From positions 193,378-257,377 of the forward strand of contig JAFUSN010000003.1 in assembly GCA_017467625.1 (NCBI GenBank): a DNA stretch of 64,000 nucleotides, read 5' to 3'. The stretch comes from Clostridia bacterium. Lineage in GTDB: Bacteria > Bacillota > Clostridia > Christensenellales > UBA1242. This document shows positions 14,446 to 64,000 of this stretch, piece by piece (position 1 is the stretch's first letter; the number at the start of each line of letters is the position of its first letter). The notes beneath the pieces are model-generated. The model saw only the letters and a list, made by a program, of their open reading frames with translations. It was not told the origin of the DNA and did no database searches. Made by a program: the position numbers and the translations under genes.

Positions 14446-14472
14446 AAAAAGCCTAAATAATTAGGCTTTTTT
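14446..14472 (-). terminator. Terminator of the tRNA operon
   Basis: aaaaagcctaaataattaggctttttt, with a T-run on both strands. Confidence 0.7.
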
Positions 14473-14560
14473 GGTGCTGATGGCCGGACTTGAACCGGCA
14501 CGGATATTTCTACCCGAGGGATTTTAAGTCCCTTGCGTCTACCTGTTTCGCCACATCAGC
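14472..14560 (-). tRNA. tRNA-Leu(UAA), CCA encoded
   Basis: Manual fold: acceptor GCTGATG/CATCAGC, anticodon loop CTTAAAA, long variable arm, T-loop GGTTCAAGTCC. Confidence 0.9.
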
Positions 14561-14568
14561 ATATATTT

Positions 14569-14643
14569 TGGAGGCGACACTCGGAATCGAACCGAGGAAT
14601 GGAGGTTTTGCAGACCTGTGCCTTACCGCTTGGCTATGTCGCC
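14569..14643 (-). tRNA. tRNA-Cys(GCA), CCA encoded
   Basis: Acceptor GGCGACA/TGTCGCC, anticodon loop CTGCAAA, T-loop GGTTCGATTCC. Confidence 0.9.
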
Positions 14644-14694
14644 GTAAAAGTGCAAACGGCAAGTTTTTCAACCCGCCGCTCTCACCTTCTTCTT

Positions 14695-14769
14695 TGGAGC
14701 GGGAAACGAGATTCGAACTCGCGACATCTGCCTTGGCAAGGCAGCGCTCTACCACTGAGCCATTCCCGC
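14695..14769 (-). tRNA. tRNA-Gly(GCC), CCA encoded
   Basis: Acceptor GCGGGAA/TTCCCGC, anticodon stem-loop CTGCC-TTGCCAA-GGCAG, T-loop AGTTCGAATCT. Confidence 0.9.
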
Positions 14770-14815
14770 ATAAAATAAAATTACTCGCCCGCACCGATAA
14801 GTGCAGTGCGAGTAA
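14770..14815 (-). terminator. Terminator-like hairpin plus U-run between tRNA-Val and tRNA-Gly
   Basis: Minus strand forms a hairpin ttactcgc(actgcac-ttatc-ggtgcgg)gcgagtaa followed by ttttatttta, 1-2 nt before tRNA-Gly. Confidence 0.45.
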
Positions 14816-14821
14816 TAAAGC

Positions 14822-14897
14822 TGGTGGGGGCTATAGGGCTCGAACCTATGACCGCCTGCTTGTAAGGCAGGTGCTCTCCCAGCTGCGCTAAACCCCC
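14822..14897 (-). tRNA. tRNA-Val(UAC), CCA encoded
   Basis: Acceptor GGGGGTT/AGCCCCC, anticodon stem-loop CCTGC-CTTACAA-GCAGG, T-loop GGTTCGAGCCC. Confidence 0.9.
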
Positions 14898-46253: not shown

Positions 46254-47012
46254 TTATTTAAAAATTGAAAGCAAATAAAGCACGATTGTATTCAATTTAG
46301 ATTGTAATTCTTGAAGTTCACAAAAAGCCTTTAAAACAGAATTTTTATAACTGACAAAAGGATTTAAAATTTTATTTGCATTCGGATTAAAATTAAAAAT
46401 TGAATAAATTTCAAAACAGTTATATAACTGATTTTTTAATAATTTGAATTTTTTTATTTTGGCTGATTTAGTTATAATTTTTGAAATTTTATTAAGCTCA
46501 TTATTTATTTCGCACATCAAAAATAATAATCTTTCTCCTAGCAAAAATTTAAAGATAGAAGTTTTTTCTTCATGAAAAAATTTTCTATTAAAATTTGCTT
46601 TTACAAATTTAAAAACGACCGGTTTGTTTGAATAATAAATTTGCATAGCTGATAAGTTTGCAAGTTCATATAAGTAAATGTGAGATCCAATTGATTTATA
46701 ATGATGGGTGTTGGAGTTAATTTCATCTTCAATTTTTTTTGAAATTTCAATTAAAAATTTTTTATTTTTCAATACAAATTTTTGTGATGTTAATGGAGTG
46801 ATTTTGGCATGCAAACTTGAATAAACATGAGTTGAAATTATTGTTTTTTGGATTTTAATTTTATTAATTTTTAACTTTTTACGCAGGTTAAAAGTTTCTT
46901 TAAAAAGTGCAAAATTACTTATAAAAATATGCTTTTTTTGATAAAATAAGCACATAAATAAACAAATTATTGTAAATATCAATATAAAAATATAAATAGT
47001 TTTTGTTATCAC
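46254..47012 (-). CDS. Hypothetical very AT-rich membrane-anchored protein
   Basis: 252-aa ORF with an N-terminal TM helix and a K/N/I/F-rich body. No recognisable motif. Confidence 0.4.
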   Translation of the reverse strand: MITKTIYIFILIFTIICLFMCLFYQKKHIFISNFALFKETFNLRKKLKINKIKIQKTIISTHVYSSLHAKITPLTSQKFVLKNKKFLIEISKKIEDEINSNTHHYKSIGSHIYLYELANLSAMQIYYSNKPVVFKFVKANFNRKFFHEEKTSIFKFLLGERLLFLMCEINNELNKISKIITKSAKIKKFKLLKNQLYNCFEIYSIFNFNPNANKILNPFVSYKNSVLKAFCELQELQSKLNTIVLYLLSIFK

Positions 47013-47047: not shown

Positions 47048-47074
47048 AAAAGCGCATAACAATTGTTATGCGCT
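47048..47074 (-). terminator. rnpB terminator
   Basis: agcgcataac-aatt-gttatgcgct followed by ttttgtttgt on the minus strand. Confidence 0.75.
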
Positions 47075-47396
47075 AGCCTGCCTGTAAGCCGAGTTCTGTC
47101 ATTTAAGGCAATCATCAATCTAGGCTTATTATTGCTAATAAGCTCATGCGATCACGGGAACGGACGAGCAGCCCATTTGTTCCACATCTTGCACCTCACG
47201 GAGTTTACAGCGGATTATTGTCACCAATATTCCGAGTGAGCTCTTACCTCACTTTTTCACCATTGCCACGAGTGGCTGTATATTTCTGTTGCACTTGTCC
47301 TCAAATTACTTTGGCTTGACGTTATCAAGCGTGATTGCTCTGCGGTGCTCGGACTTTCCTCACTGAAATTCAGCGTAATTGCCCAGCGGACTGTAA
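47072..47396 (-). ncRNA. rnpB: RNase P RNA
   Basis: ORF-free, GC-enriched stretch. The minus strand carries the universal blocks GAGGAAAGTCCGAGC, AGTGCAACAGAAA, GGTAAGAGCTCAC and ACAGAACTCGGCTTACAG. The 5' AGTCCGCT can pair with the 3' GGCAGGCT to form P1. Ends are approximate. Confidence 0.88.
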
Positions 47397-47453: not shown

Positions 47454-48149
47454 TCAATTGATAGCATAAAAACATTTAATTTCATCTATAGCTTTTTTCT
47501 CTAAACGCGAAATATATGATCTTGAAATTTTAAGTTCGTCAGCAAGCTCAATTTGTGTTCTTGGACGCTCTCCGCAAAGTCCATATCGCTTTACAATAAT
47601 TTCTTGTTCTCTATTTGATAATTTTGTTTTAATTATATGTTCAATTTTTTTGTATATAATTTGGTTTTCAACTTGCAAATCAACACTTTCACTGTCATCA
47701 TTTAAAATTTCACCAATTGACAAATTATTACCATCTTTATCAGTTGAAATGATGTCGTCAAGATATACAGATTGAGCGTTTTTTTTATTTGAACGAAATG
47801 ACATTAAAATTTCATTTTCAATACACCTAGAAGCATACGTTGAAAAGCTATTTCCCTTTTCATAGCTAAATGTTTTTATTGATTTCATAAGTCCAATTGA
47901 CCCAATTGAAATTAAATCTTCTTGATCAATTGAAGAGTTTTTATATTTTTTGGCAATATGTGCAACTAACCTTAGGTTTCGGCGAATTAAAGTTTCCTCT
48001 GCGAGTTTGTCACCTTTTTTCATTTGAATGAAATATTCTTTTTCTTCTGCGGCTGATAATGGTTTTTCAAAAGTATTTTTATTCTCTATTCGGCCAGTTA
48101 AAAGAAAAATTTTGGCTAAAAGTGAAAAAAATTTTGTTAAAAAAAACAT
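47454..48149 (-). CDS. sigK: Sporulation sigma factor, pro-sigma-K type
   Basis: Hydrophobic about 20-aa pro-sequence, then NKNTFEKPLSAAEEKEY..GD....LIRRNLRLVAHIAKKY, which matches B. subtilis SigK better than SigE. Also YASRCIENEILM and SRSYISRLEKKA. The gene is uninterrupted. Confidence 0.75.
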   Translation of the reverse strand: MFFLTKFFSLLAKIFLLTGRIENKNTFEKPLSAAEEKEYFIQMKKGDKLAEETLIRRNLRLVAHIAKKYKNSSIDQEDLISIGSIGLMKSIKTFSYEKGNSFSTYASRCIENEILMSFRSNKKNAQSVYLDDIISTDKDGNNLSIGEILNDDSESVDLQVENQIIYKKIEHIIKTKLSNREQEIIVKRYGLCGERPRTQIELADELKISRSYISRLEKKAIDEIKCFYAIN

Positions 48150-50136: not shown

Positions 50137-51147
50137 TTAATCATTGTTTTTAGGCTTTCTTCCACTGCGCTTAATTGGAGTTGTTGTAATTTTAACTTCC
50201 CTAATTTCTGGAATATTCATTTGCGTGTAGTCTTCTTGCTTTATAACATATTTTACCGGATTGTAGATATAGTTATCATCGAGATAATATCTTTCACCTT
50301 TTGATGTTAAATATGTAACAACATAGAATATTGCAATAAAGAGATATGTTGATGGAATTGTTATTGCGAGGCCTGAGAAGAATGTAAATAATGCAATAAT
50401 TCCATTAACAAAAATTATTGTCAAACGAACTGCAAGGCTCATTGAGAATATCAACCAAAAATGTTTGATAGTTGAAACAAAACTTTTTCCAAATGCAGTG
50501 AATGGATTCATATTTGACGCAATCATATTAGGCGCAATTCCCGTGAAAATAGCTAACTTAAATGAACCAAGAATTAACAAAAGCGCTGATAAAATGATTA
50601 AGCCAAGTAATGATGAGATTACAGTTTTAGCGGTATTTATAAAAACTATTATAAATGCAAATTGTAAGATGGTGAATGGCAGTGTAAAAAGAATGTTTGA
50701 AAGCGCATACTTAATTGATGGAATTAAATTTTGGATTCCGTTTTGGATATATTTAACATTCATGTTCATTGTTATTTTTTGATATGTAATTGATGCCAGG
50801 TTATAAAATGACATTTGAATCAAAATGTTAGGAAGAATAATTCCAAGTAAAATAAGGCCAAGATAACTTCCCCAAAGCGAACCAAAACTTGATGATAAAA
50901 CGCTTCCTAATGTTGACATTGTTTCATTGAAAGTTACAACAACTTCACTTGGGGCTGTGTAAACAGTTTGAAGCAAATTTGAAATTTTATCAAAAATACC
51001 ATTTGAATTTAAAAGATTGATTATTGGAGTTGAAGCTAAATATGTAAATAATCCACATATAATAACAATGATTAATGAATAAAGAAGTTGCTTCCAAACA
51101 AGCGCAAAGTTTGAAACAAAAAGTTTCAATGAATTTTTATAAGACAT
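50137..51147 (-). CDS. Hypothetical polytopic membrane protein
   Basis: 336 aa with about 7 hydrophobic helices. It has its own promoter on the minus strand: TTGATT (51234-51239), 17 nt spacer, TATAAT (51211-51216). Confidence 0.5.
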   Translation of the reverse strand: MSYKNSLKLFVSNFALVWKQLLYSLIIVIICGLFTYLASTPIINLLNSNGIFDKISNLLQTVYTAPSEVVVTFNETMSTLGSVLSSSFGSLWGSYLGLILLGIILPNILIQMSFYNLASITYQKITMNMNVKYIQNGIQNLIPSIKYALSNILFTLPFTILQFAFIIVFINTAKTVISSLLGLIILSALLLILGSFKLAIFTGIAPNMIASNMNPFTAFGKSFVSTIKHFWLIFSMSLAVRLTIIFVNGIIALFTFFSGLAITIPSTYLFIAIFYVVTYLTSKGERYYLDDNYIYNPVKYVIKQEDYTQMNIPEIREVKITTTPIKRSGRKPKNND

Positions 51148-51269: not shown

Positions 51270-51299
51270 AAAAAGGAGAAATAATATAATTATTTCCCC
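51270..51299 (-). terminator. Terminator closing the phage-derived operon
   Basis: ggggaaataat-tat-attatttctcc followed by ttttt on the minus strand, 12 nt after the holin-like stop. Confidence 0.7.
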
Positions 51300-51310
51300 T
51301 TAGTTTTTAT

Positions 51311-51832
51311 TTATTCAACATGTTCACTAACAAGTAAGTCAATTTCTTCACGAAGAAGTCTTAAATAATCTTCCTTTTTGTCTTTAAAGTTGTCTTTTTG
51401 TTTTAAGAATAAATTAATAAATTCAACTTTTTGATTTTCAAGTTCAGTTGTTTCCTTATTGTTAGTTAAATTTTCAACATGTAAGTTTTCTTCTTCATTT
51501 GCACTGTCAATGATAACATTTTCAACTGGTTGTTCCACAGTTAAAAGAATTTCTGAATTTTCAGGTTCATTGATTTCATTTTCAAAATCATTTGAGTTTT
51601 GGATGTCATCAGTTTCAGTTACAATTTTTTCTTCTGGTTCTTGTTTTTTATTTGGTGGTGCAATAATTCCAAGTAGAACTAAAATTCCACAAAGTGAAGT
51701 TACAACATCACTGAAAATTCCTTCATCAACATTAAAATTAAATTTTTGACCAAGAACTTTCACAATAAGAAAAATAGCACTTGACAGGCTCACCCAGAAG
51801 TTATAGGTTTTTATTCTGTCTTTAAGTTTCAT
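51311..51832 (-). CDS. Holin-like protein (phiLC3/phi11-type layout) with an acidic C-terminal tail
   Basis: N-terminus KLKDRIKTYNFWVSLSSAIFLIVKVLG...SLCGILVLLGIIAPPNKK has the two-TM layout and motif spacing of PF04531-type holins as I recall them. RBS aggaga. Confidence 0.55.
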   Translation of the reverse strand: MKLKDRIKTYNFWVSLSSAIFLIVKVLGQKFNFNVDEGIFSDVVTSLCGILVLLGIIAPPNKKQEPEEKIVTETDDIQNSNDFENEINEPENSEILLTVEQPVENVIIDSANEEENLHVENLTNNKETTELENQKVEFINLFLKQKDNFKDKKEDYLRLLREEIDLLVSEHVE

Positions 51833-51897: not shown

Positions 51898-52143
51898 TTA
51901 AAGAGTTTCATTTTTCACCATCACATTATCATCGTAGCACATAGCTAAATAATTATCATTTATTGGTAAAACCGCATTATAGTTAAGCGATTTATCATAT
52001 GTGCATCGCATATTTGTTTTATCAATAGTGTAAATTTTCAATGCTGAATTAAAAATAAATAAATGTGATTTTGTTGTTGAAATTGGTTTAAGAGCAATGT
52101 TTGTTCCTGAAACAATTTTGTATAGCGTATTTTTAAAAATCAT
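51898..52143 (-). CDS. Orphan beta-rich protein, 81 aa (candidate tail-associated)
   Basis: ATGA overlap with the upstream 661-aa ORF. Same strand-turn-strand pattern as its neighbours. Confidence 0.45.
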   Translation of the reverse strand: MIFKNTLYKIVSGTNIALKPISTTKSHLFIFNSALKIYTIDKTNMRCTYDKSLNYNAVLPINDNYLAMCYDDNVMVKNETL

Positions 52144-54125
52144 AAATCAAATTGCAAAGTAAATTTTGCACTTACTCCCTTATTATTCATTCCAAGCGGA
52201 ACGTATTTAACTTGATTAACTAAATAAGAGTCTTCATTACTCGAAATGTTTTCTATTAATGTTTGATCAAGAATAAGATTATACCCTAAAATTGGTTCAG
52301 ATTTATTATTTGTAAAAATTAAAAGAATGTCATTTAAAAATTCAAAATCTACAATTGAACTTTTCTCAATAGAAGTTGGAATTCCTGAAATGAATTGATT
52401 TGGAGTATCATAACCAACAAGATTGTAAATTTTAAAATCATTGTTTTGAGATTTTTGTATTAGATACAATAAATTTGTTGATAAATAATTTTCAGATTCA
52501 TTTTCAAACAAGCTTAATGTGTACCTATACATTTGTGGATAGTAATATAGCCACAACTTTGGACTTGTGCTTTTTTCAACAATAACAGCCCTACCCTTGG
52601 AATATGTTTTAATTGCATCATGGGTGTAATAATATGCAAGAATAGAATATAAGTCAGTTTTTTGTTTATTTTGATCAAATGTAACAATTCTGCAATATGC
52701 AGCTCTCTCGTCTCCCTTTAAAAATATAACTGATGAGTCAGTGAAATTATTTTTAAACATTGAAATAACTGTATCAAATTCATAGTCATTAGATTCAGAA
52801 TTTGAGTTATAAATAAATAACTCATTTTGGCTATCATAATCTAAATATAATACATTCGCAAAATGGTTAGATTTTGTAATAACACCAATCATTAGCATAT
52901 TATTTTTTGTGTATGTTATTTCAACATCAAAAATATTATTAAGCAAAGATTCGGCGTCAAATGCTCCAAAATTTAATTCAATTGGACTTAAAATGCGGTT
53001 TTTTATAAGAAATGCAGATATAAATGGTTGTGTTTTTGAAACAACAAAAACAAAGGAGTCAAATGAAATAATTTTTGTAATATTTGCAATTGATAAATTA
53101 TTTGCATGTAAATCATAGATTGAATAATTCTCATTTTGATAGCCATATATAGTATTATTGCAAATAAAGAAAATTTTGTCGCCATCACGAGATAAAAATC
53201 TTGGTGTGTTTTTATTAAATAAATTGTAGAATGGTAAGTAGACTTTATCTCCAAGTTTATTGGAATATTTTATTTCAGTCCATGATGCTTCAAGTTCAGA
53301 ATTTGATTGTTTGGTTATTGAAACACAATTTTTTATATCTTCTCCCAAATCTATAACATGATTTCGTTTTGGCTCACTGACTGATAAATATGTAACTGGA
53401 GTATGATACTCTGTGCATACAGTTCGCGCAAAAGGTTTTTCGCCAATTGAAAAAACAATTTCATTAGTTTTTCCCTCGCCAAGATCCCCTTGTATTTCTA
53501 TTGAAAAGTTTTCTTCATTAAATATTAATGAGCAAGGAAATTTTTCTGTGGTTGTTTGACATCTTTCAATTTGGTTTTTGCTTGTAATATAACCACGCGA
53601 AATATTAATTGAGTCACTCAATCCTAAGCCGAGTAAAAATTTTAAAAAATCATTATTACCAAGTGTTAAAATTAAATCATTATCAGTTATATTTAAATAA
53701 ATATAAATCGATAAAACTAAACTTTTATTTTCCTCCTTTAAAATCCCATCTGGCGTTTCTTCAGTTATTAGTGAAAAGTAATTTATTAAAGTTAGATCAT
53801 CTTTTGTATTACATAGTCCAATTTCTTTAATATATTTATTATTTAATTCAAAATCATCAATTATTACGGTTTTTTTAATGAAAATATCACTAAATTTTGG
53901 ATTAGTTTGCAGATTTGTTGTTTCAAGCCTATATGCCTTGATTGGTGTTGTTAATTTAAATTCAGTTTGTTTTAAAGAAGGTTCACCAATTCCAATTGCA
54001 ATAAATTCGCCGTATGATTTCTGACTTATTAACCTATCAAATACTGTCTTATAAAATGAGTTAAAATAAGTTGTTTTTTTGCCACAAAATTCAACTTCTA
54101 ACTTGTTATGAAAAGAAAACTTCAT
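52140..54125 (-). CDS. Orphan structural protein, 661 aa (candidate tail, nozzle or fibre)
   Basis: Translationally coupled. Repeated hydrophobic beta-strand pairs such as GDKIFFICNNTIYGY, DSSVIFLKGDERAAYCRIVTF and NDILLIFTNNKSEPILGY. Confidence 0.6.
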   Translation of the reverse strand: MKFSFHNKLEVEFCGKKTTYFNSFYKTVFDRLISQKSYGEFIAIGIGEPSLKQTEFKLTTPIKAYRLETTNLQTNPKFSDIFIKKTVIIDDFELNNKYIKEIGLCNTKDDLTLINYFSLITEETPDGILKEENKSLVLSIYIYLNITDNDLILTLGNNDFLKFLLGLGLSDSINISRGYITSKNQIERCQTTTEKFPCSLIFNEENFSIEIQGDLGEGKTNEIVFSIGEKPFARTVCTEYHTPVTYLSVSEPKRNHVIDLGEDIKNCVSITKQSNSELEASWTEIKYSNKLGDKVYLPFYNLFNKNTPRFLSRDGDKIFFICNNTIYGYQNENYSIYDLHANNLSIANITKIISFDSFVFVVSKTQPFISAFLIKNRILSPIELNFGAFDAESLLNNIFDVEITYTKNNMLMIGVITKSNHFANVLYLDYDSQNELFIYNSNSESNDYEFDTVISMFKNNFTDSSVIFLKGDERAAYCRIVTFDQNKQKTDLYSILAYYYTHDAIKTYSKGRAVIVEKSTSPKLWLYYYPQMYRYTLSLFENESENYLSTNLLYLIQKSQNNDFKIYNLVGYDTPNQFISGIPTSIEKSSIVDFEFLNDILLIFTNNKSEPILGYNLILDQTLIENISSNEDSYLVNQVKYVPLGMNNKGVSAKFTLQFDL

Positions 54126-55135
54126 AAATTCACCTCATAATCACTTATTTCGATTGAACATGACACTGACAAATTTGAATTTAAAATTTCATTTTCATCA
54201 ACTGATTCAACAATATAATTAGAATTAAATTTATCTGTTAAAATCAAGAAAAATTTTTCTTTTAAATCATCATAAAATGAAGAAACATTATTGATTGGAT
54301 TTGTAAAATTAATTTTAGTTGGAAAACTTAGTCCATTTGAAATCATTTCCATGTGATAGCAAATTCCACTCTTTACATAAGAAAGTAAAATTTTTTCACC
54401 ATCACTTGAAGATGATACAGATGTTACTTCTTTTTCTATAAAAATATCATTTGTGTCATTAAATTCTCGATAAAACAAATTTCCACTTGTGTCAACTCTA
54501 AATAAATAAATTTTATTGCCAAGTTTTGCAAAAGAATAATCAGTAGTTGATTGAATTGAGTTAAAATCTTCAGTTGAATATAATGAATTTTCCTTCGGTG
54601 AGTTTAAATAATATAATGTATTTTTATCACACATTGAAATTAAAAAATAATTTTCCAAAACCAATGTTTCATATTTGTGTATTTGATGATTTTCGTCTAA
54701 ACCAAAACAAGTTAATGTTATTCCATTGATGATAAATGATGTATCTTGTTTAGAAGATATTTCAAATTGCAAATTGACCGTATCACTAAATAATGGCAAA
54801 TAATTTTTTGTTAAATTAATTTGTTGTGTGCCAGGATTTACGTTGCGTGTGGTTTTATATATTGGCGTATCATCAATAAAAATTTTTATTGAAATAGTTG
54901 TATTTTCTGTAAAAAATAAATCTACAATTCCATTTAGATAAATATTTTGATTTTTAGTGATATTGATTTTAGCTATTGATGTTTGAAAATTTTTTACAAT
55001 ACTTTGCCCATTGAAGTATTTGCTGAATATTGCTGGAAAAATTATATTATTTTGAACTAAATTCTTGTTTGCAACTTGTGATTTATTATCTAAATTTTCA
55101 GTAAGCTGAAGGATAGTTTTTATTGGATTAATCAT
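54122..55135 (-). CDS. Orphan structural protein, 337 aa
   Basis: An N-terminal beta-sandwich-like segment (IYLNGIV..KIF..LQFEIS..INGITL) is followed by blade-like repeats such as GNKIYLFRVDTSGNLFY. Confidence 0.6.
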   Translation of the reverse strand: MINPIKTILQLTENLDNKSQVANKNLVQNNIIFPAIFSKYFNGQSIVKNFQTSIAKINITKNQNIYLNGIVDLFFTENTTISIKIFIDDTPIYKTTRNVNPGTQQINLTKNYLPLFSDTVNLQFEISSKQDTSFIINGITLTCFGLDENHQIHKYETLVLENYFLISMCDKNTLYYLNSPKENSLYSTEDFNSIQSTTDYSFAKLGNKIYLFRVDTSGNLFYREFNDTNDIFIEKEVTSVSSSSDGEKILLSYVKSGICYHMEMISNGLSFPTKINFTNPINNVSSFYDDLKEKFFLILTDKFNSNYIVESVDENEILNSNLSVSCSIEISDYEVNL

Positions 55136-56511
55136 TTTTCACCAATCGTTTTAATATTGAATTCAAGAGATTCTATTTTAAAATAATCTTCCCCTTCAAA
55201 TTGAAATTGAAAATAATTACCAACTACACCTAATCCATTCATATTTATTATTCCAGAAATAGAATTATATTCATATTCAGCGATATTTGTAAAAATTTTA
55301 AGTTTATATGATCCAGTTCCATTAATATAAATCGATGTAAGCGTTTTATATTTGCATTCATCAAAATAAAGTTTTGCAAACTTAATAAATTTATATTCGG
55401 ATGTCATAATATTTTTATTTAAAGCTAAAATTTCATTTTTATTATCAGTATCATTAGTTAATAAAACTAATAGATAATAGTTTATTGTTTTAATTAAATA
55501 AATTGATTTTAAATTTTTTATATAATGGATAGTTGTATTATTATTTTGAATATCTAGTTCAATTAGCATTGTTTTATATTCCAACTCGGAAAAATATTCG
55601 CAACAAATATAGTAATGATTATTAAAAACTAAACTTGATAATTTTTCTATTTTTAATTTTTCAAAAACTTCAGAAAACAACTCTTTTATATTATTACCAT
55701 CAAATATAAATATTCCACCACTTGTAACAAAAATGATATTATCATCAATAATTTCAATTGAATTTGCAATAATTTGCGAATTTATTTTAAATAGTGAATT
55801 TAAATACGTTTCATTTGAATTATATTGAAGTTTTGAAATTGCATATTGTTGAACAACATACAAATTGTTCATATGAGTAATTATTTTTAATATCTTACCA
55901 TGTGCAGAGTTTAGCGGAATTGAATTAATTAAATCAAAATTTGTATCAATATTTTCTAATTCACTTTCTATATAAAACAAGTTAGAATTTGAGTTGTTTA
56001 CAGTAAAATATAAATTGTTTTTAAAAAATTCAACACAACCAATCATTGGCATATTTGGGAGGATAATTAAAGGTTCATTTTTTTCTATTAAAACAAATAA
56101 CGAATCATTATCATAGCAATAAAATTTTTCATTGTTGAGAAAAAATTTAGGATTTGTATTAAATTTTATTTCTGTTGATACAAATTTATATGTAGTTAAA
56201 TTTAGTTCAAATAAAGTAAAGGTTTCACTCACACCAAAAATTCTTTTTTGAGTTTCACCAGCTATGTCTAAATATTCGTAAAATTGTATGTTTATAAATT
56301 TTGAAAGCTCAGAAGCATTTTCCGTTATAAAGTTTTCATATTCATTAGCTGGTATAATAAATTTAAATAAATTTGAATATCCAATTGTTGGTTGAATATT
56401 TCCTAAAGATGTACTTATGTTGTTTAAGTCTGAAATTAAAAGCAAATCTTTTTGTAGTAATTGTAGAGTGTGTTTAGTATTAAAATTATTAAAAGTATAA
56501 TTTTTATTCAT
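55132..56511 (-). CDS. Orphan structural protein, 459 aa
   Basis: Blade-like repeats (NNLYFTVNNSNSNLFY, DDNIIFVTSGGIFIFDG). The C-terminal segment IYINGTG..KIF..FQFEGE..IESLEF resembles the N-terminus of the next protein. Confidence 0.6.
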   Translation of the reverse strand: MNKNYTFNNFNTKHTLQLLQKDLLLISDLNNISTSLGNIQPTIGYSNLFKFIIPANEYENFITENASELSKFINIQFYEYLDIAGETQKRIFGVSETFTLFELNLTTYKFVSTEIKFNTNPKFFLNNEKFYCYDNDSLFVLIEKNEPLIILPNMPMIGCVEFFKNNLYFTVNNSNSNLFYIESELENIDTNFDLINSIPLNSAHGKILKIITHMNNLYVVQQYAISKLQYNSNETYLNSLFKINSQIIANSIEIIDDNIIFVTSGGIFIFDGNNIKELFSEVFEKLKIEKLSSLVFNNHYYICCEYFSELEYKTMLIELDIQNNNTTIHYIKNLKSIYLIKTINYYLLVLLTNDTDNKNEILALNKNIMTSEYKFIKFAKLYFDECKYKTLTSIYINGTGSYKLKIFTNIAEYEYNSISGIINMNGLGVVGNYFQFQFEGEDYFKIESLEFNIKTIGEK

Positions 56512-57095
56512 CTTATAAATGTTGACTTTAAAAGTCTTTCCTTTTTGGTTTTATATTTAAAAATTTCATATAAAAATTTATTTTTCCAAAACTCACTTGC
56601 TTCAAATTCGTTTTTTGATGCAAAAAACTCACTTACAACGCCATAAGCAATAATTTTTTTGCTGATGTTTTTAGGTAGTAGCATATCATCACTGATATCT
56701 TTTATTACTTTTGGAATATATTTATATGTAACCAAATATTCCCTATATGGTGCTTCAACAATAATATAGTTTGGCGTTAGATCAAAATTTACTTTTTTAT
56801 TTAGTGGGTTTTTTACATCAAGAATTTTAATTGCTCTATTTACTAATGTATAATATGGAATTTGAGAATCAATGTTTGATGTTATCAATTCAGTTGTAAT
56901 AAAATCAAAATAATGCTCTGCAGTTGCTTCCATTGTAAAATTATAAAAACTAATTAGTCTCAATAAATCATTTCTAATTTGGGTATCTTCAATATCAATA
57001 AGATGATTGTAATTTTCGACAGCATCAAGTAAATCGCTTCGATTTAATATTAAAATGCATCTTTTTAAAAAGTTTTTAAACATAGTATTATCCAA
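56508..57095 (-). CDS. Candidate head-to-tail adaptor (about 190 aa)
   Basis: The call rests on size and on position two genes after the capsid gene, as for T7 gp11-type adaptors. The start is uncertain: TTG at 57095 or ATG at 57083. Confidence 0.4.
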   Translation of the reverse strand: MDNTMFKNFLKRCILILNRSDLLDAVENYNHLIDIEDTQIRNDLLRLISFYNFTMEATAEHYFDFITTELITSNIDSQIPYYTLVNRAIKILDVKNPLNKKVNFDLTPNYIIVEAPYREYLVTYKYIPKVIKDISDDMLLPKNISKKIIAYGVVSEFFASKNEFEASEFWKNKFLYEIFKYKTKKERLLKSTFIR

Positions 57096-57106
57096 GATAA
57101 ATAAAA

Positions 57107-57448
57107 CTAAATCCGTGAAGATGTCTTGTATAAATCATTTAGTTTATCTTTAATAGATAAAGTATTATTTTTAATATTTTTTTCAATAACTAAATTATTG
57201 ATATTTTCTATTTCGTCAAAAATTTTAGTGGAATGTTCCACCCTTGTTTTTTGGAGAATATTAATTAAATTAACTTTAAAATTGCTAAAAGTATAACAAA
57301 TTTCATTGTTATTTGCAGAATTTAATATCATGAATAATTTTTTCTTATAATTAAATACTAGCTTATAATTTTTATCAATTAAAGTTATTAAATTATAATA
57401 ATTAAATTGATCATTATACTCGACAAATTCATTCGAATTTAGTTTCAT
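57107..57448 (-). CDS. Hypothetical phage protein, 113 aa
   Basis: RBS aaggaa. Located between the capsid gene and the adaptor-sized gene. Confidence 0.5.
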   Translation of the reverse strand: MKLNSNEFVEYNDQFNYYNLITLIDKNYKLVFNYKKKLFMILNSANNNEICYTFSNFKVNLINILQKTRVEHSTKIFDEIENINNLVIEKNIKNNTLSIKDKLNDLYKTSSRI

Positions 57449-57459
57449 TTATTTTTTCC

Positions 57460-58647
57460 TTAAGATTCTTTTATGCCTGTAATTTTTGCTTGACCACTTG
57501 GTTTGTTGCAAATTAAATCAGCATATTTTACAAGTGTGGCTTGATATGTTGGTTTTCCTGGGGTTTGCCTAATTACTCTTCCGTCTTCACCCTCAAGCCA
57601 TTTCCAATCACAAAGTTGGTGTAAATTAAATTCAGATGTATTTAATAAATACATTGTGTTGGCAGGAACAAATTTATCAGAAACAACAGGAATGCCGTTG
57701 TAAGAAATCGCTTTAAAACCACCTTCCAAATTTAAAATATCAATGTTGCTTCTGTATGATGCAAGATATGATTGATAATTTCTTTTAACTCCTGCTGAAC
57801 ATACAATAAAGTCAACTTTACTGTCTGCATTTTCATCAAGTTCATCAATAGCTTTTTGCATGGCTACTTCTGTTATATCTGCATTTGTTCCACCTGTTGA
57901 AATATCTTTCATATATGGAACCATCCAACTGTATGTTGATCTGTCAAGTCCATAGAGACTTCCAGTTGTTTGGAAAATTGCACCAAGTCCTGTAATTTCA
58001 TTGTTATATGATCCTTGAACACAGAGTTTATAACCTGTTTGATAAGCATTTGCAGTGAATGAAGCGGATGTGAAATATACTTTTTTATTGATTCTATCAA
58101 TTGATTTGATTCTAAGTGACGATGCACCGGTTGCTACCACTCCTGAGGTGGAAACAATATCAACAACCATTCCTTCAATTAAATTTTTAACTGAATCAAC
58201 AGTTACATTGTTTGTTCCATTTGCTGAAATTGATGCCAAAAAACCTGTTCCATCACCATATAACATTCTTCCAAAGTTAAATGTGCTTGCTTTAACAAGT
58301 CCGTCCATTTCTGCATTCAAAAGGTTAACAAATGCACCGGCAGAATTTTCTGAAGCACGAATTGCTTTGTCACTAATTTCAAGTTTTCCATAAAGGTTTT
58401 TAAGTGTTAAGACAAATTGAGCATAGTTATTGCTTGCTGATTCAGGAAGTTCGCCGTCTTCTGTTCCCGCTCCAATTCCTCCATTAATTCCATATGGAGC
58501 AAATTTTCTAATTTCCTTTCCCCAAACATCAGCTGTTGTTTGATTGATTCTTGCAAGTAATGGATTGATGTTTGTGTTTAATTGATTTGCGACAACGCCA
58601 AGATACACTTCTTTTAATGCGCTGTCGGCTGTTTGTAAAGTTACCAT
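57460..58647 (-). CDS. Major capsid protein (probable HK97 fold)
   Basis: 395 aa, directly after the scaffold gene, strong RBS (aggaga), Gly/Ala/Thr-rich composition typical of capsid proteins. It is the most GC-rich ORF in the cluster. Confidence 0.65.
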   Translation of the reverse strand: MVTLQTADSALKEVYLGVVANQLNTNINPLLARINQTTADVWGKEIRKFAPYGINGGIGAGTEDGELPESASNNYAQFVLTLKNLYGKLEISDKAIRASENSAGAFVNLLNAEMDGLVKASTFNFGRMLYGDGTGFLASISANGTNNVTVDSVKNLIEGMVVDIVSTSGVVATGASSLRIKSIDRINKKVYFTSASFTANAYQTGYKLCVQGSYNNEITGLGAIFQTTGSLYGLDRSTYSWMVPYMKDISTGGTNADITEVAMQKAIDELDENADSKVDFIVCSAGVKRNYQSYLASYRSNIDILNLEGGFKAISYNGIPVVSDKFVPANTMYLLNTSEFNLHQLCDWKWLEGEDGRVIRQTPGKPTYQATLVKYADLICNKPSGQAKITGIKES

Positions 58648-58655
58648 AAAATCTC

Positions 58656-59237
58656 CTATTTAAGCATTTTTGAAAATATTTCCCCTGCCTCTTTAATCGT
58701 TTTTGGTTTTTCAGATTCAACAATATAAACATTAGTTGAATTTCCTGAAATTAATTTTGGCGTTTGAGGAATATTGTTGATTTTTGATAAATATTCAGCA
58801 ATAATTTTTGTTTTTAGAGCTTCATTGTTGCTTAAGTATTCATCAATAAATTTTGAATCATTTAAAATATTTGCAGACCTTTCATTTGCTTGATTAATTA
58901 CAGCTAATCCAATGTCAAACTTATTTGGTAAATTTTGAAAAAGTTCATTATTTACAATTTGTAATATTTCTTCTTTCTTATCTTCTGAGTTTGTTCGTTT
59001 TAAAAAATCATCAATATTTTCTTCTTTATTAAAAAGTGCATTTTCATTAAATTCTTTTTCAATTTCAGCCAATTTTTGACTTTTTCTAGTAAATTCTGCT
59101 TCTAAATTTGTGTAAGCATCTAAAAGGTTTTTTACATTTTTAAACTTTCCAAATGTAGAGCCATTATTGCTTTCTAATTCATTTTGTGCACTGTTTTGAT
59201 TAGAAATATTTTCTGGTTGTTCTACTAATTCTTCCAT
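58656..59237 (-). CDS. Capsid scaffolding protein
   Basis: 193 aa, acidic with coiled-coil character (LLDAYTNLEAEFTRKSQKLAEIEKEF), positioned between portal and capsid. Confidence 0.55.
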   Translation of the reverse strand: MEELVEQPENISNQNSAQNELESNNGSTFGKFKNVKNLLDAYTNLEAEFTRKSQKLAEIEKEFNENALFNKEENIDDFLKRTNSEDKKEEILQIVNNELFQNLPNKFDIGLAVINQANERSANILNDSKFIDEYLSNNEALKTKIIAEYLSKINNIPQTPKLISGNSTNVYIVESEKPKTIKEAGEIFSKMLK

Positions 59238-59238
59238 A

Positions 59239-61107
59239 TTATTCTCCTAAAAATTTTTTATGTTCATTGATATGTTGTAAGAGTTTTTTCTCAAAATTCG
59301 TATCAAAGTCCTCATCTTTTAATGTAATTAAAAATTTAATATGTTCATTAATGTGAATTTTGTGATCATCAATTTCAAGTGGTGAATTTAGTTTAATTAG
59401 TTTTAAATTTTCTTTCTGGGCTCTTTCTTTTTGACATTCATCAATGCTTTTTTCAGTTACCCAATCTTTAAATCCGAAAAGATCTAAAAGTTTTGATTTG
59501 TTAGTTTCTAAAATTTTTCCATTTGAATCATTAAACAATCCTTTTTCAAGAAGTTTAATGGCGAGTTCCTCTTTTGTGGATGCATCATCAAGTAGTTCAT
59601 TTTTAGTTTCAAAAATCACATCGTCACTTGTTATGTTACTATTGTTCCAATAATATATTTTTATTTTTCCATTTTTATCAGTAATAGAATCAAGACGGTT
59701 TTGTGTTGTGAACTGTTTATAAAGCTTAATTAAGAAAACGCCCACTTTTTTAATTGAATCGCGAATATATTCCGCAGTTAGTGATAAACGAGATTCGTCT
59801 TGTTTAATTAGCATAGATAGAGCCGAACCGCTATTTATTCCAGATGGAATGCTTGAATTTGTTGTTACATCGCTTATGCAGCTTAGATTGTTTATTTCAT
59901 TCAAAAGATTTTTTTCTTCATCTTCGAGTTCATTTGGAACAGTTCCTGGTTGAATGAATTCAGGTGGATGTGATCCGTTTCTATAAATCAAAATTTTGCC
60001 AGGAGCTAGACCCTCATCTTCTAAATTATTGACATCTACTGAACCATCTTCAACACTTAAAACACCACTTGCAAGTCTTGCAATAAATTCATGTTTTTTA
60101 TTTTTTATCGCATTGTATGTTCGTTGCAATGGAATACATCTTTCAATAACACTGATACCCCAAAAACATGAAAGTTGTTTTGTTGAAACTTGCTTAACAA
60201 AAGGATATGAATATGAATTGTTTTTTCCAATTTTATATGGCAAATCACCATCATATAACAGGATATTTTTTGCAGTTATTGTTAATCTTCCATTTGGTCT
60301 TTTCTGTGTTGGTTTTTCATATTTTTCAACAACTAAAATATGATTGTGTTTTGGTGAGTGAATTAATTTTGAAATATTACTTCTCCCAGAAAAACCAGAA
60401 ATTAATGTATTGGTTGCAATTTCAAATGTATCAACATCTTCTCCAGTTAACTTAACTCCCCAAGTTTCGTTAACAATATCAACGGGATATGCCCTTGCTT
60501 CAATTATTGATGCGCAGTCATCAATTTCAATAGAACTATTTGAATCTGGATATATTTCAAATGGTGAGCATACAGAAATTACAGCATCTCCAGATTTTAT
60601 GTAATTATTTGAATTTTGATCATTTGCGATTATTGGGCCAATTTCATTATCCCATGAGACCTTATAAAAACTTGTTCCAGTAATTTCACTCCATGCTGTG
60701 GCTGATGAAATTAATGTATCAAAATTATTGCTATCTAAGGCATAATTTAAAATTGATTTTGTTAGTTCTGCAGCTGCAACATCATTTTCAGATGAACTTG
60801 ATGGCCTAACTGTTAAATTGGGCTTAATTTTTGATAGTTTTGCAAGTCTAGTTTCAATGACTGGTGCAATGTGATTAAAAACTTCTCGGTTTTCCCAATA
60901 ATAATTTTTTTCAATATCTAAAATTTCTCCCGTTGAAGAAATATAGCTAAACTGATTACCAATATAGTAATTCATATTTAAGCCCCATGTTAGCTCATAA
61001 ACTCTTCTTTCTTCTTGTCTTCTTTTTAAGTCTTCATTAATTGCACTGACAATAACTTCGTCTTCCTCTTTAGAATAAAAAAATTTTTGATTACTCTTTT
61101 GTTTCAT
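59239..61107 (-). CDS. Portal protein
   Basis: 622 aa, in the position between terminase and scaffold. No other candidate of portal size is present. Confidence 0.6.
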   Translation of the reverse strand: MKQKSNQKFFYSKEEDEVIVSAINEDLKRRQEERRVYELTWGLNMNYYIGNQFSYISSTGEILDIEKNYYWENREVFNHIAPVIETRLAKLSKIKPNLTVRPSSSSENDVAAAELTKSILNYALDSNNFDTLISSATAWSEITGTSFYKVSWDNEIGPIIANDQNSNNYIKSGDAVISVCSPFEIYPDSNSSIEIDDCASIIEARAYPVDIVNETWGVKLTGEDVDTFEIATNTLISGFSGRSNISKLIHSPKHNHILVVEKYEKPTQKRPNGRLTITAKNILLYDGDLPYKIGKNNSYSYPFVKQVSTKQLSCFWGISVIERCIPLQRTYNAIKNKKHEFIARLASGVLSVEDGSVDVNNLEDEGLAPGKILIYRNGSHPPEFIQPGTVPNELEDEEKNLLNEINNLSCISDVTTNSSIPSGINSGSALSMLIKQDESRLSLTAEYIRDSIKKVGVFLIKLYKQFTTQNRLDSITDKNGKIKIYYWNNSNITSDDVIFETKNELLDDASTKEELAIKLLEKGLFNDSNGKILETNKSKLLDLFGFKDWVTEKSIDECQKERAQKENLKLIKLNSPLEIDDHKIHINEHIKFLITLKDEDFDTNFEKKLLQHINEHKKFLGE

Positions 61108-61270
61108 TTTTATAACTATTCCTTTTAAATAAACTTGTTAATTCTTTAAAACAATTTTCACATAGATATATGTTTCCTTTGTAACTATTTGTAACTAATT
61201 CATATGTGCATGTTTGGTTGCATAAAACAGTGTCACATTTTGCAAATGAATTAATTTTATTAAGAATCAT
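61091..61270 (-). CDS. Unlisted 59-aa Cys-rich (zinc-ribbon-like) protein
   Basis: The ATG lies 7 nt after GAGGAGA. The peptide is MILNKINSFAKCDTVLCNQTCTYELVTNSYKGNIYLCENCFKELTSLFKRNSYKNETKE, with Cx4Cx3C and CxxC motifs. It overlaps the stop of the upstream gene and the start of the portal gene, and is just under the 60-aa cutoff of the ORF track. Confidence 0.55.
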   Translation of the reverse strand: MILNKINSFAKCDTVLCNQTCTYELVTNSYKGNIYLCENCFKELTSLFKRNSYKNETKE

Positions 61271-61691
61271 TTTTAATCTCCTCTAATAATTTGCTTTTTA
61301 GTTCAATAAGTTCATTGTTGCTAAGTTGTTTTATCTCATCACCTTCTACCTCCTTCGCAAAAATTTCAAGAAGAGTTTTAATAGCGAGCATGTCAGGCGG
61401 AATATAATGCGTGGTAATTTTTTTCTTAGATAAAGTAAGCGAGCTAGAGATTTCATTTCTTGTTTTTTCTGTTTCATTTTCTATTTTAATTTTATCACAT
61501 AAACCCATAGAATTTTGAGCACTCGTGCCATCAAAATCAAAAAATGACATGTTTTTAATGTTTTTAAAGTCATTTTTTGCGTTTTTATTAAAATTTTCAT
61601 ATTCAAGCTGTTCTTCAGTATATGAAAATCCTTTTGCACGTTTTATTAAGAGTTCTATTAAGTCTTTATTAGTAAATTTTTTGTTTTTCAT
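61260..61691 (-). CDS. Terminase small subunit-like protein
   Basis: LIKRAKGFSYTEEQ and KKITTHYIPPDMLAIKTLLE resemble the G.Y.E...K..K..PPD..A..F.LKN pattern of some Firmicute phage TerS proteins, recalled from memory. The gene overlaps the TerL stop. Confidence 0.4.
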   Translation of the reverse strand: MKNKKFTNKDLIELLIKRAKGFSYTEEQLEYENFNKNAKNDFKNIKNMSFFDFDGTSAQNSMGLCDKIKIENETEKTRNEISSSLTLSKKKITTHYIPPDMLAIKTLLEIFAKEVEGDEIKQLSNNELIELKSKLLEEIKNDS

Positions 61692-63111
61692 TTCGTTTTA
61701 GTGACCTTACTAATTTTTCTTTATCACGTTGAATTTCAGTTAAATATCTTTTTTCTAAATTCTGCGCTGGCAGATTCATGATGTAGTAGCGAAGTTCGTC
61801 AAGAGAGTGGTCATCAATTTTGATTGGATTGTCACCGCCACCCCATCTATATGTTTTAAATTCACGAATTAAATTTTTACATGATGAAAAAATAAACAAT
61901 TTTGTTTTGCCGTCAATGCTTTTTAAAAATGTCTTAACTTTTGATATTCCAGCAAGTAAATTTTTATTTACATTTGTATTACATAAAATTCCATTTTCAT
62001 AAAATAATTCTGCAACGCTTTTTGGGCTGGATAATGTTTTTTGATTTGCTGCTGAATCAATTAAGCATTCAATCATGCCGTTTCTAGCTTTTTTCCATGA
62101 AAGTGATGCTGAAATTTCCTTTATCCTATTTGAATGATATTCAATGGTTTGATTTGATTCGTAATGTTCTGCAATTACATATACATTATTATCATAATCT
62201 TTTGCGTACCAATGGCATGAAAGCGGGTTTGATAGTCCTGGGTCAATCGAAATAATATCTTGCCAATCTGCTGGAATTTCAAATGGTTCAATAACATGTG
62301 TTTCAATTTCAAATTCTGAATAAACCAAACCACAGTCTTTTAAGTAAAATTTACCATCTTTTCTTGTTGCTAGTTCATCAGCTGAAAGTGATGCGGATAG
62401 TCTTTTTATTTCAGCTTTGTTTAAATACGGATTATCTTCCCAAGACATAAACTGAAAATATACTTCAGGATCATTATTTTTATTTAGGTAAATTTCATTA
62501 TAAATGAATGACAAACCTTTAAGAGGTGTCATTGTTCCAAAAATTTCACCACTTCTATCCATGATGCGCATTTTGCATTCATTATAAATATCTTCAGGTG
62601 GTTCTTCATCAAACCAGACAAAATCCAGACTTGCTCCTTGAAATTTTTCCCTGCCTTCCTCACATGACTTAAACCAAATTTTACTTATATTTCCGAATGA
62701 GTTTATTACACTAATAGATTCAATTACTCCAAATTCAGGTGCTTCACGTTTTCCGGATATCATCGTTATGTTTTTAATTGTATTTTTAGGTAGATATTTT
62801 AAAATCTTGGCTTGTGCAACTTCTTTTTGAACTCTTGTGGATAAACTTACAACCCAACATTCAGTTTGAGGCTTGTTTTTTCTAAAGGGGTGGATTCCAA
62901 GTGAAAGCCAAATTGTTTCAACTGCCCCGCATTCGGTTTTTCCGGTTCTATTTCCACCAAACACCCACCTATTTCTTTTTTGTGATTGATGAAACATAAG
63001 TTGCTTTTGATGAATAATTTTCCCTGTGTTGTATCTTGAAAGGTTTAATAAATTTCTAACGTTAATTTCTTTTTGAATTTTTAATAATTTAATTATTTTT
63101 ATTTTATCCAT
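61669..63111 (-). CDS. Terminase large subunit
   Basis: Walker A FGGNRTGKTECG, Walker B LDFVWFDEEPP, C-terminal nuclease-type acidic residues (ISIDPG, DDHSLDELRY), 480 aa. Confidence 0.85.
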   Translation of the reverse strand: MDKIKIIKLLKIQKEINVRNLLNLSRYNTGKIIHQKQLMFHQSQKRNRWVFGGNRTGKTECGAVETIWLSLGIHPFRKNKPQTECWVVSLSTRVQKEVAQAKILKYLPKNTIKNITMISGKREAPEFGVIESISVINSFGNISKIWFKSCEEGREKFQGASLDFVWFDEEPPEDIYNECKMRIMDRSGEIFGTMTPLKGLSFIYNEIYLNKNNDPEVYFQFMSWEDNPYLNKAEIKRLSASLSADELATRKDGKFYLKDCGLVYSEFEIETHVIEPFEIPADWQDIISIDPGLSNPLSCHWYAKDYDNNVYVIAEHYESNQTIEYHSNRIKEISASLSWKKARNGMIECLIDSAANQKTLSSPKSVAELFYENGILCNTNVNKNLLAGISKVKTFLKSIDGKTKLFIFSSCKNLIREFKTYRWGGGDNPIKIDDHSLDELRYYIMNLPAQNLEKRYLTEIQRDKEKLVRSLKRNEKQKIY

Positions 63112-63185: not shown

Positions 63186-64000
63186 ATGAAGAAATTGATA
63201 ATATTTTTGAATTTTTTAATAGTGATAAATTTTGTAAATTATCCTATAAAAAATACTAATGCAGAATCTCTAACATATGCAAAAGCTTTAAATAATTGTA
63301 CACTTTATAAAACAGTAAATTTATCAAACGACCTCACTGATATTTATTTTGTTATTCCTGAAACTTATTTTGTCGTTATTATAGAAAATGTTTCAGATGA
63401 AGTGATAAAGGTTCAGTATGATAAATTTATTGGTTATGTTCGTGCTGAATCGGTTGTTGTTGCTACATTTATACCAAATGTTAAAACACTACTAGGTGTA
63501 ACATTTGATATTAAAGAAACCTCTGGAACTCAAATTTGGTCATATCCATCATCTGTGTCAGGAACTATTTTAACAACATTATCTGCATCAACAAAAAAAA
63601 TAAATTATATTGCCTATGCATATGGATCAGTGCCAAATGGTGGTGAATCAAATTTATGGTATTTTGTAAGTTACACCCCTGAATTTAATTCAACAAATTA
63701 TTATGAGGGTTATATTTATAGTGAAAATGTTACAAACTTATCACCTATTATTCCTAATGTTGAAAGTAACCCAATTAATGAAACTTTAATTCAAAATATT
63801 ACAAGTGATGACAATGTTCAAAAGCAACCATCTCAGACATTTCAAACATTATTAATTATAGTTATAGCTGTACCAATTATTTTGTTAATTGCGGTTATTT
63901 TGTTGAAAATAACAAAAAAAATTAAAGAAAATGCAGTTTTTAAGCAAAATAATAAAATTGAAAATAAATACAATTCATCAAAGCCTTTGGCTAATAATAT
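63186..64000 (+). CDS. Secreted/membrane-anchored protein with SH3b-like repeats, 3' end outside the window
   Basis: The ATG at 63186 is open to the window end, so the ORF is not in the track. It has a signal-peptide-like N-terminus, two segments of the type I.V.Y....GYV, and a TM helix near residue 225. Confidence 0.6.
   Translation, partial: MKKLIIFLNFLIVINFVNYPIKNTNAESLTYAKALNNCTLYKTVNLSNDLTDIYFVIPETYFVVIIENVSDEVIKVQYDKFIGYVRAESVVVATFIPNVKTLLGVTFDIKETSGTQIWSYPSSVSGTILTTLSASTKKINYIAYAYGSVPNGGESNLWYFVSYTPEFNSTNYYEGYIYSENVTNLSPIIPNVESNPINETLIQNITSDDNVQKQPSQTFQTLLIIVIAVPIILLIAVILLKITKKIKENAVFKQNNKIENKYNSSKPLANN

Follow-up and report, generated by a model that had tools for sequence, protein, structure and literature searches.

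A podovirus-type head-tail cassette of Christensenellales, probably domesticated and gene transfer agent-like, with a predicted nozzle protein and clade-dependent distal tail genes

We analyzed a stretch of 64,000 nucleotides (nt) from a Clostridia bacterium of the order Christensenellales (positions 193,378 to 257,377 of contig JAFUSN010000003.1, assembly GCA_017467625.1; hereafter the window), focusing on four minus-strand open reading frames (ORFs) at 51898-56511 which encode proteins of 459, 337, 661 and 81 amino acids (aa), named p459, p337, p661 and p81. These four genes probably constitute the distal tail half of a podovirus-type particle, and the head-tail cassette to which they belong is probably a domesticated, vertically inherited element that resembles gene transfer agents (GTAs) and not an active prophage. 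This reading builds on the gene content of the cassette, the predicted folds of p459 and p661, conservation, a fixed chromosomal location and co-divergence with the host, and would entail that the gene products form particles that package random DNA and transfer it. The four genes and the gene preceding them are:

56508..57095, minus strand: p195 (195 aa), head-to-tail adaptor candidate, with an ATGA overlap with the start of p459
55132..56511, minus strand: p459 (459 aa), predicted tail nozzle/tail-hub protein, with a seven-bladed beta-propeller flanked by platform beta-sandwich parts at both termini (AlphaFold2, Foldseek)
54122..55135, minus strand: p337 (337 aa), conserved protein directly after the nozzle; by position a candidate tail needle/plug or proximal fibre
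52140..54125, minus strand: p661 (661 aa), distal tail; candidate receptor-binding or distal tail component (AlphaFold2)
51898..52143, minus strand: p81 (81 aa), small protein always accompanying p661; possibly an accessory or assembly factor

In the initial annotation, made from the sequence of the window, the four ORFs were described as translationally coupled, and a 4-nt ATGA overlap is indeed present at each of their junctions. However, the same overlap joins the upstream gene p195 to p459, so that the chain p195/p459/p337/p661/p81 comprises five genes. Shine-Dalgarno-like sequences, as read from the junctions, precede p337 (GGTGA) and p661 (GAGGTGA), and no good one was seen before p459 or p81.

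Stop codons in 45 long ORFs were TAA in 32, TAG in 7 and TGA in 6 cases, tryptophan is encoded normally, and the conserved genes lack in-frame TGA. A TGA-recoded genome is thus ruled out by stop-codon usage and by the intact conserved genes. In the public record of an identical contig (ena:ERZ28655269 scaffold_9, our locus L005), gene calls read through TGA in the manner of a code-4-type model. Because of this TGA-sense model, the products listed there over 51898-57095 are mis-sized, with 215, 441, 345 and 721 aa instead of 195, 459, 337, 661 and 81, and the 81-aa gene is lost.

A full HMMER scan showed that p459 belongs to a large family, with 1780 representatives of 50%-identity clusters at E <= 1e-3 and 514 at E <= 1e-30, whereas a word-indexed homologue search, which saturates on the low-complexity AT-rich p459, had yielded only 3-5 matches. 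An AlphaFold2 model of p459 based on an alignment of 143 family sequences reached a predicted local distance difference test (pLDDT) of 95.2 and a predicted template modeling score (pTM) of 0.92. It starts with short strands and two helices, continues with 28 strands in residues 72-382 and ends in a C-terminal four-strand sandwich; as counted from the DSSP string, the central strands form a propeller of seven four-stranded blades (residues ~72-382; nt 55366-56298). When the model was compared with the PDB using Foldseek, the top 24 matches were almost all nozzle or tail-hub chains of podoviruses, with E-values down to 2e-19 and template modeling (TM) scores of 0.6-0.75. The best match was the tail of Pseudomonas phage Pa223 (9nwi_Y; E 2e-19, TM 0.75/0.68), and others were Vibrio phage VP1 (8zkk_O; TM 0.71), P22 gp10 (8eap_D; TM 0.62/0.60), GP4, Pan3, SU10 gp17, the PhiM1 nozzle, the crAss001 muzzle and T7 gp12; for 9nwi_Y, 8zkk_O, 8eap_D, 7z47_G and 7boy_s, E-values ranged from 2e-19 to 1e-8. 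In the SU10 nozzle, a platform sandwich is made of the N- and C-terminal parts and a seven-bladed propeller lies between them (PMC9509320). Because the modelled fold and the Foldseek matches fit this SU10-type architecture, p459 is predicted to be an ordinary nozzle/tail-hub protein.

At the level of sequence, single-protein scans of Pfam, PHROG and NCBIfam gave no matches for p459, p337, p661 or p81. PHROG 3287 ('virion structural protein') was matched by 45 of 56 members of the p459 family with a best E-value of 1e-16, the window protein itself reaching an E-value of only 0.037. Profile searches of PDB sequences with the families of p459, p337, p661, p195 and the major capsid protein (MCP) gave sub-threshold matches only, one of which, to SU10 chain 7z47_G (E 0.066), later proved meaningful. 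No relative of p459 or p661 was found by tblastn among 50,697 GenBank phages. For locus statistics we used 87 related loci, of which 43 cover the core span of the cassette and 40 are long; in 43/43 loci the order MCP, p113, p195, p459 holds, placing p459 directly after the gene in adaptor position. P22 gp10, of 471 aa, likewise follows the adaptor gene. The predicted fold of p459 is like those of the nozzles of P22 (gp10), Pa223, VP1, SU10 (gp17) and T7 (gp12), yet sequence identity to podovirus nozzles is only 8-12%, and p459 has neither the additional immunoglobulin (Ig)-like domains of the SU10 gp17 nozzle nor a long nozzle tip like that of T7 gp12. Proteins of the p459 family can now be named tail nozzle or tail hub instead of hypothetical protein.

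For p661, an AlphaFold2 model from 27 homologues (pLDDT 90.2, pTM 0.86) shows N-terminal beta-sandwich-like domains (residues ~1-290) followed by a C-terminal seven-bladed propeller (residues ~309-660; nt 52146-53201). In the PDB, Foldseek matched p661 only to generic propellers (target-side TM about 0.5), and in BFVD to propeller proteins, some of them annotated as phage tail fibres; neither database yielded a full-length structural match. The 27 full-length homologues are 35-46% identical to p661, which is confined to the low-GC (guanine plus cytosine) clade.

With these models, several descriptions of the initial annotation can be specified. The quoted strand-turn-strand motifs fall on predicted beta-hairpins, residues 165-180 of p459 spanning strands 166-171 and 177-181, and residues 315-329 of p661 spanning strands 317-322 and 325-332; 'beta-rich' holds for p459 and p661, which are almost all-beta in their high-confidence models. 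The proposal of propeller-like tail or nozzle components was right for p459, which matches podovirus nozzles, and for p661 at the level of the fold of its C-terminal half. In contrast, the idea of a lineage without characterized relatives cannot be upheld for p459, as the structure modelling and Foldseek search proposed in that annotation led confidently to well-characterized tail proteins and removed the novelty of p459. Similarly, 'orphan' applies to the curated libraries only, given the 1780 cluster representatives of p459 and the 27 full-length homologues of p661.

The genes distal to p459 depend on the clade. First comes p337, whose family occupies the same position in 46/87 loci, with about 300 aa or, in some clades, about 800 aa; it is followed by p661 and p81 (in the low-GC clade) and/or a protein of about 310 aa with the Pfam domain DUF7934, then sometimes by the holin, and then by a membrane protein. 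In 17 loci p81 was found, always directly after p661. No matches to p337 were obtained in Pfam, PHROG, NCBIfam or PDB sequences and none to p81 in the databases; the needles P22 gp26 and SU10 gp18 show no detectable similarity to p337, the next protein after p459. Such clade-wise variation is the pattern expected of a receptor-binding tail end. At L018, L023, L030 and L099-L102 the p337 homologue, with about 785-805 aa, is more than twice as long and has therefore gained extra domains; at L003 it is split into ORFs of 191 and 127 aa, which may result from a frameshift or from misassembly.

The DUF7934 protein is encoded by the final tail gene in most Christensenellaceae (for example L035:14390-15277, L057:14364-15338; L004:7143-7829). 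DUF7934 was found in 15 of 105 scanned flanking proteins (20 loci) with a best E-value of 2e-37, which ties this family to the distal tail of the cassette. No homology was detected between this clade-specific gene and p337, p661 or p81.

The complete operon of 11.8 kb has the order terL-p143-p59-portal-scaffold-MCP-p113-p195-p459-p337-p661-p81-holin. Its other features are:

61669..63111, minus strand: large terminase terL; Pfam Terminase_6N (E 1.5e-12) plus an RNaseH-like C-terminal domain
61260..61691, minus strand: p143, adjoining terL, small-terminase candidate; family in 69 loci
61091..61270, minus strand: p59, small conserved ORF, called in L005; family in 51 loci
59239..61107, minus strand: P22-like portal; Pfam P22_portal (E 5e-18), phrog_156 (E 5e-32)
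58656..59237, minus strand: scaffolding protein candidate between portal and capsid; family in 84 loci
57460..58647, minus strand: MCP of HK97 type; phrog_14242 (E 1e-58)
57107..57448, minus strand: p113, small conserved protein between capsid and adaptor genes; 40 loci
51311..51832, minus strand: holin, last gene of the operon; phrog_297 (E 1e-9), Pfam Phage_holin_1
51273..51301, minus strand: intrinsic-terminator-like hairpin, 13-bp stem and T run, 10 nt past the holin stop

The MCP is 25-30% identical to capsid proteins of the podophages Jasmine and Shocker. The p195 family is present in 84/87 loci and invariably lies between capsid and nozzle genes; direct sequence and structure searches gave no match for p195, and by its position it may be the adaptor that docks on the portal.

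When representative genomes of GTDB species (one genome per species) were scanned with the MCP as query, relatives with 60-81% identity were detected in at least 542 species representatives. The best 80 matches were all from metagenome-assembled genomes (MAGs) of Clostridia, many of them labelled Christensenellaceae, Christensenella, Catabacter, Borkfalkia or Heteroclostridium. An identical gene order beside the gene for RNase J was found in L004 and L006-L009, the 40 long loci agree with it, and cassette, order and host neighbours are the same even where p661 is only 35-46% and the MCP 49-80% identical. All 43 loci that cover the span have intact genes for terL, p143, portal, scaffold, MCP, p195 and p459. 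Also, the GC content of the cassette follows that of its flanks (r = 0.967 over 26-68% GC), and Mantel tests against the protein distances of the adjacent RNase J gave r = 0.79 for the MCP and r = 0.83 for p459 (p = 5e-4), the mean distance being smaller for the MCP (0.34) than for RNase J (0.42). The cassette thus has the anatomy of a chromosomal head-tail(-lysis) cluster that is free of replication, integration and lysogeny genes, is inherited vertically with the host and has its genes preserved intact under selection, as is characteristic of GTAs.

According to the GTA-like reading, p195 would dock as adaptor on the portal of a small capsid, p459 as nozzle/tail hub would form the tail channel together with p195, and p337, p661 and p81 would be lineage-specific distal proteins which plug this channel and/or bind the surface of the target cell. 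The roles of the latter three are proposed because of their position, the all-beta folds and the clade-specific replacement. The ATGA overlaps would couple translation, leading to joint production of the subunits of one assembly. The small capsids would package pieces of host DNA and would be released by holin-dependent lysis.

Several points weigh against this proposal. The cassette is known here from its genes alone, from which particles, expression and packaging would have to follow, and vertical inheritance of capsid and tail genes is equally compatible with a killer particle like PBSX of Bacillus subtilis that does not deliver DNA. A structural role was assigned to p337 and p81, which are without database matches, by position alone, and neither an endolysin nor ejection or internal virion proteins were recognized in the cassette. 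No RNA run contained the capsid gene, and Logan metagenome contigs over the region showed only the contiguous integrated state, plus spurious 20-nt 'joints' in AT-rich sequence. Prophages inserted into some cassettes (see below) show that it can be interrupted, at least transiently. Finally, the likeness to FpGTA of Faecalibacterium prausnitzii, discussed at the end, is one of gene order and annotation, not of compared sequences of proteins RCH50846-RCH50852.

We consider it unlikely that the cassette encodes a PBSX-like killer or lysis particle, which would contain DNA without transferring genes and would act as a bacteriocin-like weapon or serve plain lytic release of DNA and cell contents. 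Known killer particles of the PBSX kind rely on contractile or long tails, whereas a short tail of podovirus type, its nozzle fold offering a channel for DNA, together with the kept terminase and portal, fits DNA delivery better. PBSX has a sigma-like positive regulator, Xpf, beside its late operon, and the candidate regulator up203, with similarity to sigma region 4, occupies a comparable position beside the operon of the window genome. The same conserved anatomy without integrase and the holin within the operon would also suit such a particle, and this caveat was raised for FpGTA by its own authors (PMC12946183).

The main interpretation of the initial annotation, tail genes of an ordinary, potentially inducible temperate podophage from an uncharacterized lineage, is quite improbable. 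All recognizable genes of the cassette are indeed phage head, tail and lysis genes, and IMG/VR classes fragments of the same cassette as viral. However, the traits of temperate prophages are missing: no integrase, repressor or replication genes were found in the cassette or in related loci, no recombinase or integrase was among the 25 commonest Pfam families of the 105 flanking proteins, which instead represent housekeeping functions (PhoH, YbeY, GTPases, YqfD, tRNA synthetases) and the DUF7934 of the cassette itself, and at the cassette ends direct repeats of attachment (att) type amounted to short chance matches only and no tRNA target was present. Moreover, an element of only ~12-14 kb that keeps position and neighbours while p661 diverges to 35-46% identity, occurs in at least 542 species representatives, is ameliorated to host GC across 26-68% and has a capsid protein more conserved than the adjacent RNase J does not behave like such a phage. 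As for the IMG/VR contigs above 30 kb, their size stems from other prophages that have inserted beside or within the cassette, which again counts against the podophage.

Temperate prophages were observed inside the cassette at differing points in L091/L135 (one IMG/VR contig of 67.7 kb), L124 and L127, and also in L090/L130, L106 and L123. Insertion points were the gap between MCP and p113 (insert of ~58 kb), terL (leaving a remnant of 176 aa) and the MCP gene (leaving a remnant of 296 aa), and in all three insertions two large serine recombinases in tandem, orthologous between the insertions (29-42% identity), lie beside the junction. A further prophage, with a Hoc-like protein and an endolysin, directly adjoins a truncated terL. 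It seems that the conserved cassette is a recurrent integration target, and insertion would switch it off in lysogens.

It had also been proposed that the four proteins share a beta-sandwich-like module and a repeat style. Paralogy by duplication of one such sandwich or strand-turn-strand module is, on our data, very improbable. In an all-versus-all BLASTP of the cassette proteins, E ~0.5-2 was the best that any pair reached; for the four proteins the best E-values were 0.7-2, as for control pairs. When family alignments built from the related loci were compared profile to profile with hhalign, the comparison that had been suggested for this question, probabilities were 0.6% for p459 versus p337, 2.2% for p459 versus p661 and 1.8% for p337 versus p661. 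Seven-bladed propellers are present in the models of both p459 and p661, and the 2.2% derive from a weak blade-to-blade match (p459 187-222 versus p661 331-364), but the propeller is a common convergent fold. The noted resemblance between the C-terminus of p459 and the N-terminus of p337 reaches a probability of 8% with sub-profiles, yet it scores like shuffled sequence: for p459 394-451 versus p337 65-141 the Smith-Waterman score of 29 is close to the 27.5 ± 5.1 of shuffled sequences (z = 0.29), 35% of which score as high. The combined fraction of Phe, Tyr, Asn, Ile and Lys (F+Y+N+I+K) in the p459 family falls from 0.44 in genomes below 32% GC to 0.18 in those above 50% GC (Spearman -0.94), with similar trends for the p195, p337 and p661 families, and the compositional style is thus gone in GC-rich orthologues. 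The common 'style' consists largely of beta-hairpins and AT-rich composition.

Least credible is the suggestion that these are non-structural cargo (moron) genes at the end of a phage operon. It is true that p337, p661 and p81 lack annotated relatives and that the distal genes differ between clades. However, p459 is a predicted nozzle to which the others are translationally coupled, all lie between the adaptor-like gene and the holin within a head-tail operon conserved over hundreds of genomes, and distal variation is typical of receptor-binding tail parts; if these genes were taken away, nothing in the cassette would serve as distal tail or bind a receptor.

Beside the cassette, three further genes attracted our attention:

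50137..51147, minus strand: mem336, multi-pass membrane protein of 336 aa, adjoining the cassette
63186..64000, plus strand, cut by the window end and continuing at L005:2304-3260 (-): up318, divergent from terL; secreted and membrane-anchored
L005:1720-2331, just past window position 64000, plus strand: up203, with a helix-turn-helix like that of sigma-70 region 4/extracytoplasmic function (ECF) factors

In 24 of the 41 loci with enough downstream sequence, mem336 is kept beside the cassette even where genes further downstream differ; no family match was found for it, and it may be part of the system, with a role such as lysis, release or immunity. In up318, a signal peptide, a pair of SH3b-like repeats and a membrane anchor at the C-terminus were recognized by eye from the family alignment. 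Where enough upstream sequence was available, up318 was present in 37/37 and up203 in 36/37 loci. One member of the up203 family exceeds the Pfam cutoff (Sigma70_r4_2) and the copy of the window genome matches TIGR02937 (E 9e-4); up203 is a candidate for a dedicated operon regulator, reminiscent of PBSX Xpf. A promoter scan found 127 sites when 112 were expected.

Downstream of the cassette lie the membrane protein, RNase J, RNase P RNA and a sigma factor. The RNase P RNA (class A, 236 bits; 47069-47394, minus strand) adjoins the gene for the sigma factor of 231 aa (47454-48149, minus strand), whose N-terminus resembles, by eye, a pro-sigma-E/K leader. An ORF of 252 aa (233 aa from the first ATG; 46254-47012, minus strand) lies between host genes and combines a GC content of 0.21 with an F+Y+N+I+K fraction of 0.50, the maximum of the window. 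Four tRNA genes are located at 14472-14897. Upstream of up203, past the window, a giant ORF of 9755 aa was called (L005:1-1315). Related genomes have ORFs of at least ~900-1200 aa at this place, truncated where the loci end. How long the giant ORF really is remains uncertain because the public record was called with the TGA-sense model.

Our literature searches retrieved no description of the Christensenellales cassette itself. The closest known system is FpGTA of F. prausnitzii, a chromosomal operon of 10.5 kb whose products dominate particles of ~40 nm that look tail-less and contain ~9 kb of random host DNA, and which its authors called the first podovirus-like GTA-like element (PMC12946183, Nat Commun 2026). 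The order of FpGTA operon I given with its proteomics data is TerL, portal, unknown, MCP, unknown, adaptor (PDB 7sp4) and tail nozzle (PDB 8eap) (PMC12946183). In this operon of ~10-12 kb, TerL, portal, scaffold-position protein, MCP, small unknown protein, adaptor and nozzle thus follow each other as in our cassette, with the small unknown protein at the position of p113 and the annotated adaptor at that of p195, and PDB 8eap, by which the FpGTA nozzle was annotated, is also a top structural match of p459. Like the cassette, FpGTA is nearly ubiquitous in its host taxon and lacks replication and integration genes. In contrast, the host of FpGTA belongs to the Oscillospirales and not to the Christensenellales, the TerS-like gene precedes terL in FpGTA and follows it in the cassette, and the fibre, receptor-binding protein and lysis genes of FpGTA reside in a second locus ~125 kb away, whereas the distal tail genes and the holin of the cassette are part of the same operon. 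Also, particles have been shown for FpGTA, while the cassette, in which no endolysin was found, is known from its genes.

GTA-type packaging has been reported for Christensenellaceae MAGs, with 4.07 and 7.07 kb for HGM11616 and 6.3 kb for QANA01, and no gene cluster was named for it (PMC12946183). As packaged pieces of 4.1-7.1 kb are shorter than the operon of 11.8 kb, a particle could not carry its own genes, as in a GTA, provided that one may infer across species. It is possible, and we propose this tentatively, that our cassette is the cluster behind this 4-7 kb packaging: an ancient, order-wide GTA derived from a podovirus, with up203 as regulator and a clade-diversified distal tail (p337, plus p661/p81 or DUF7934) that sets the recipient range, and which is a recurrent target of temperate phages with tandem serine recombinases that switch it off. 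In the human gut microbiota, the Christensenellaceae belong to the members with the highest heritability and the closest association with health. GTA-type packaging of their DNA has been seen without an assigned locus, and one conserved 12-kb cassette in hundreds of species, including cultured relatives of Christensenella, is a specific candidate that can be tested. Confirmation would make it the second GTA-like system of podovirus type to be known, spread over a whole order, and its defined tail module of adaptor, nozzle and three uncharacterized distal proteins would be open to structural and host-range work.

PBSX is likewise a phage-derived chromosomal cassette of a Firmicute, and the position of its sigma-like regulator compares with that of up203. 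However, PBSX is myovirus-like with a contractile tail, comprises ~28 kb and occurs in few Bacillus species, whereas the cassette is of podovirus type, comprises ~12 kb and is order-wide. PBSX packages host DNA fragments of 13.4 kb (PMC12946183). Finally, RcGTA of Alphaproteobacteria is, like the cassette, a vertically inherited head-tail cluster that lacks replication and integration genes and evolves with its host. In RcGTA-type elements the packaged DNA has been reported to be shorter than the cluster, and the same would apply to the lineage of the cassette. RcGTA differs from it by being siphovirus-like, by the absence of homologous tail genes, by its occurrence in a different phylum and by having its lysis and attachment genes elsewhere.

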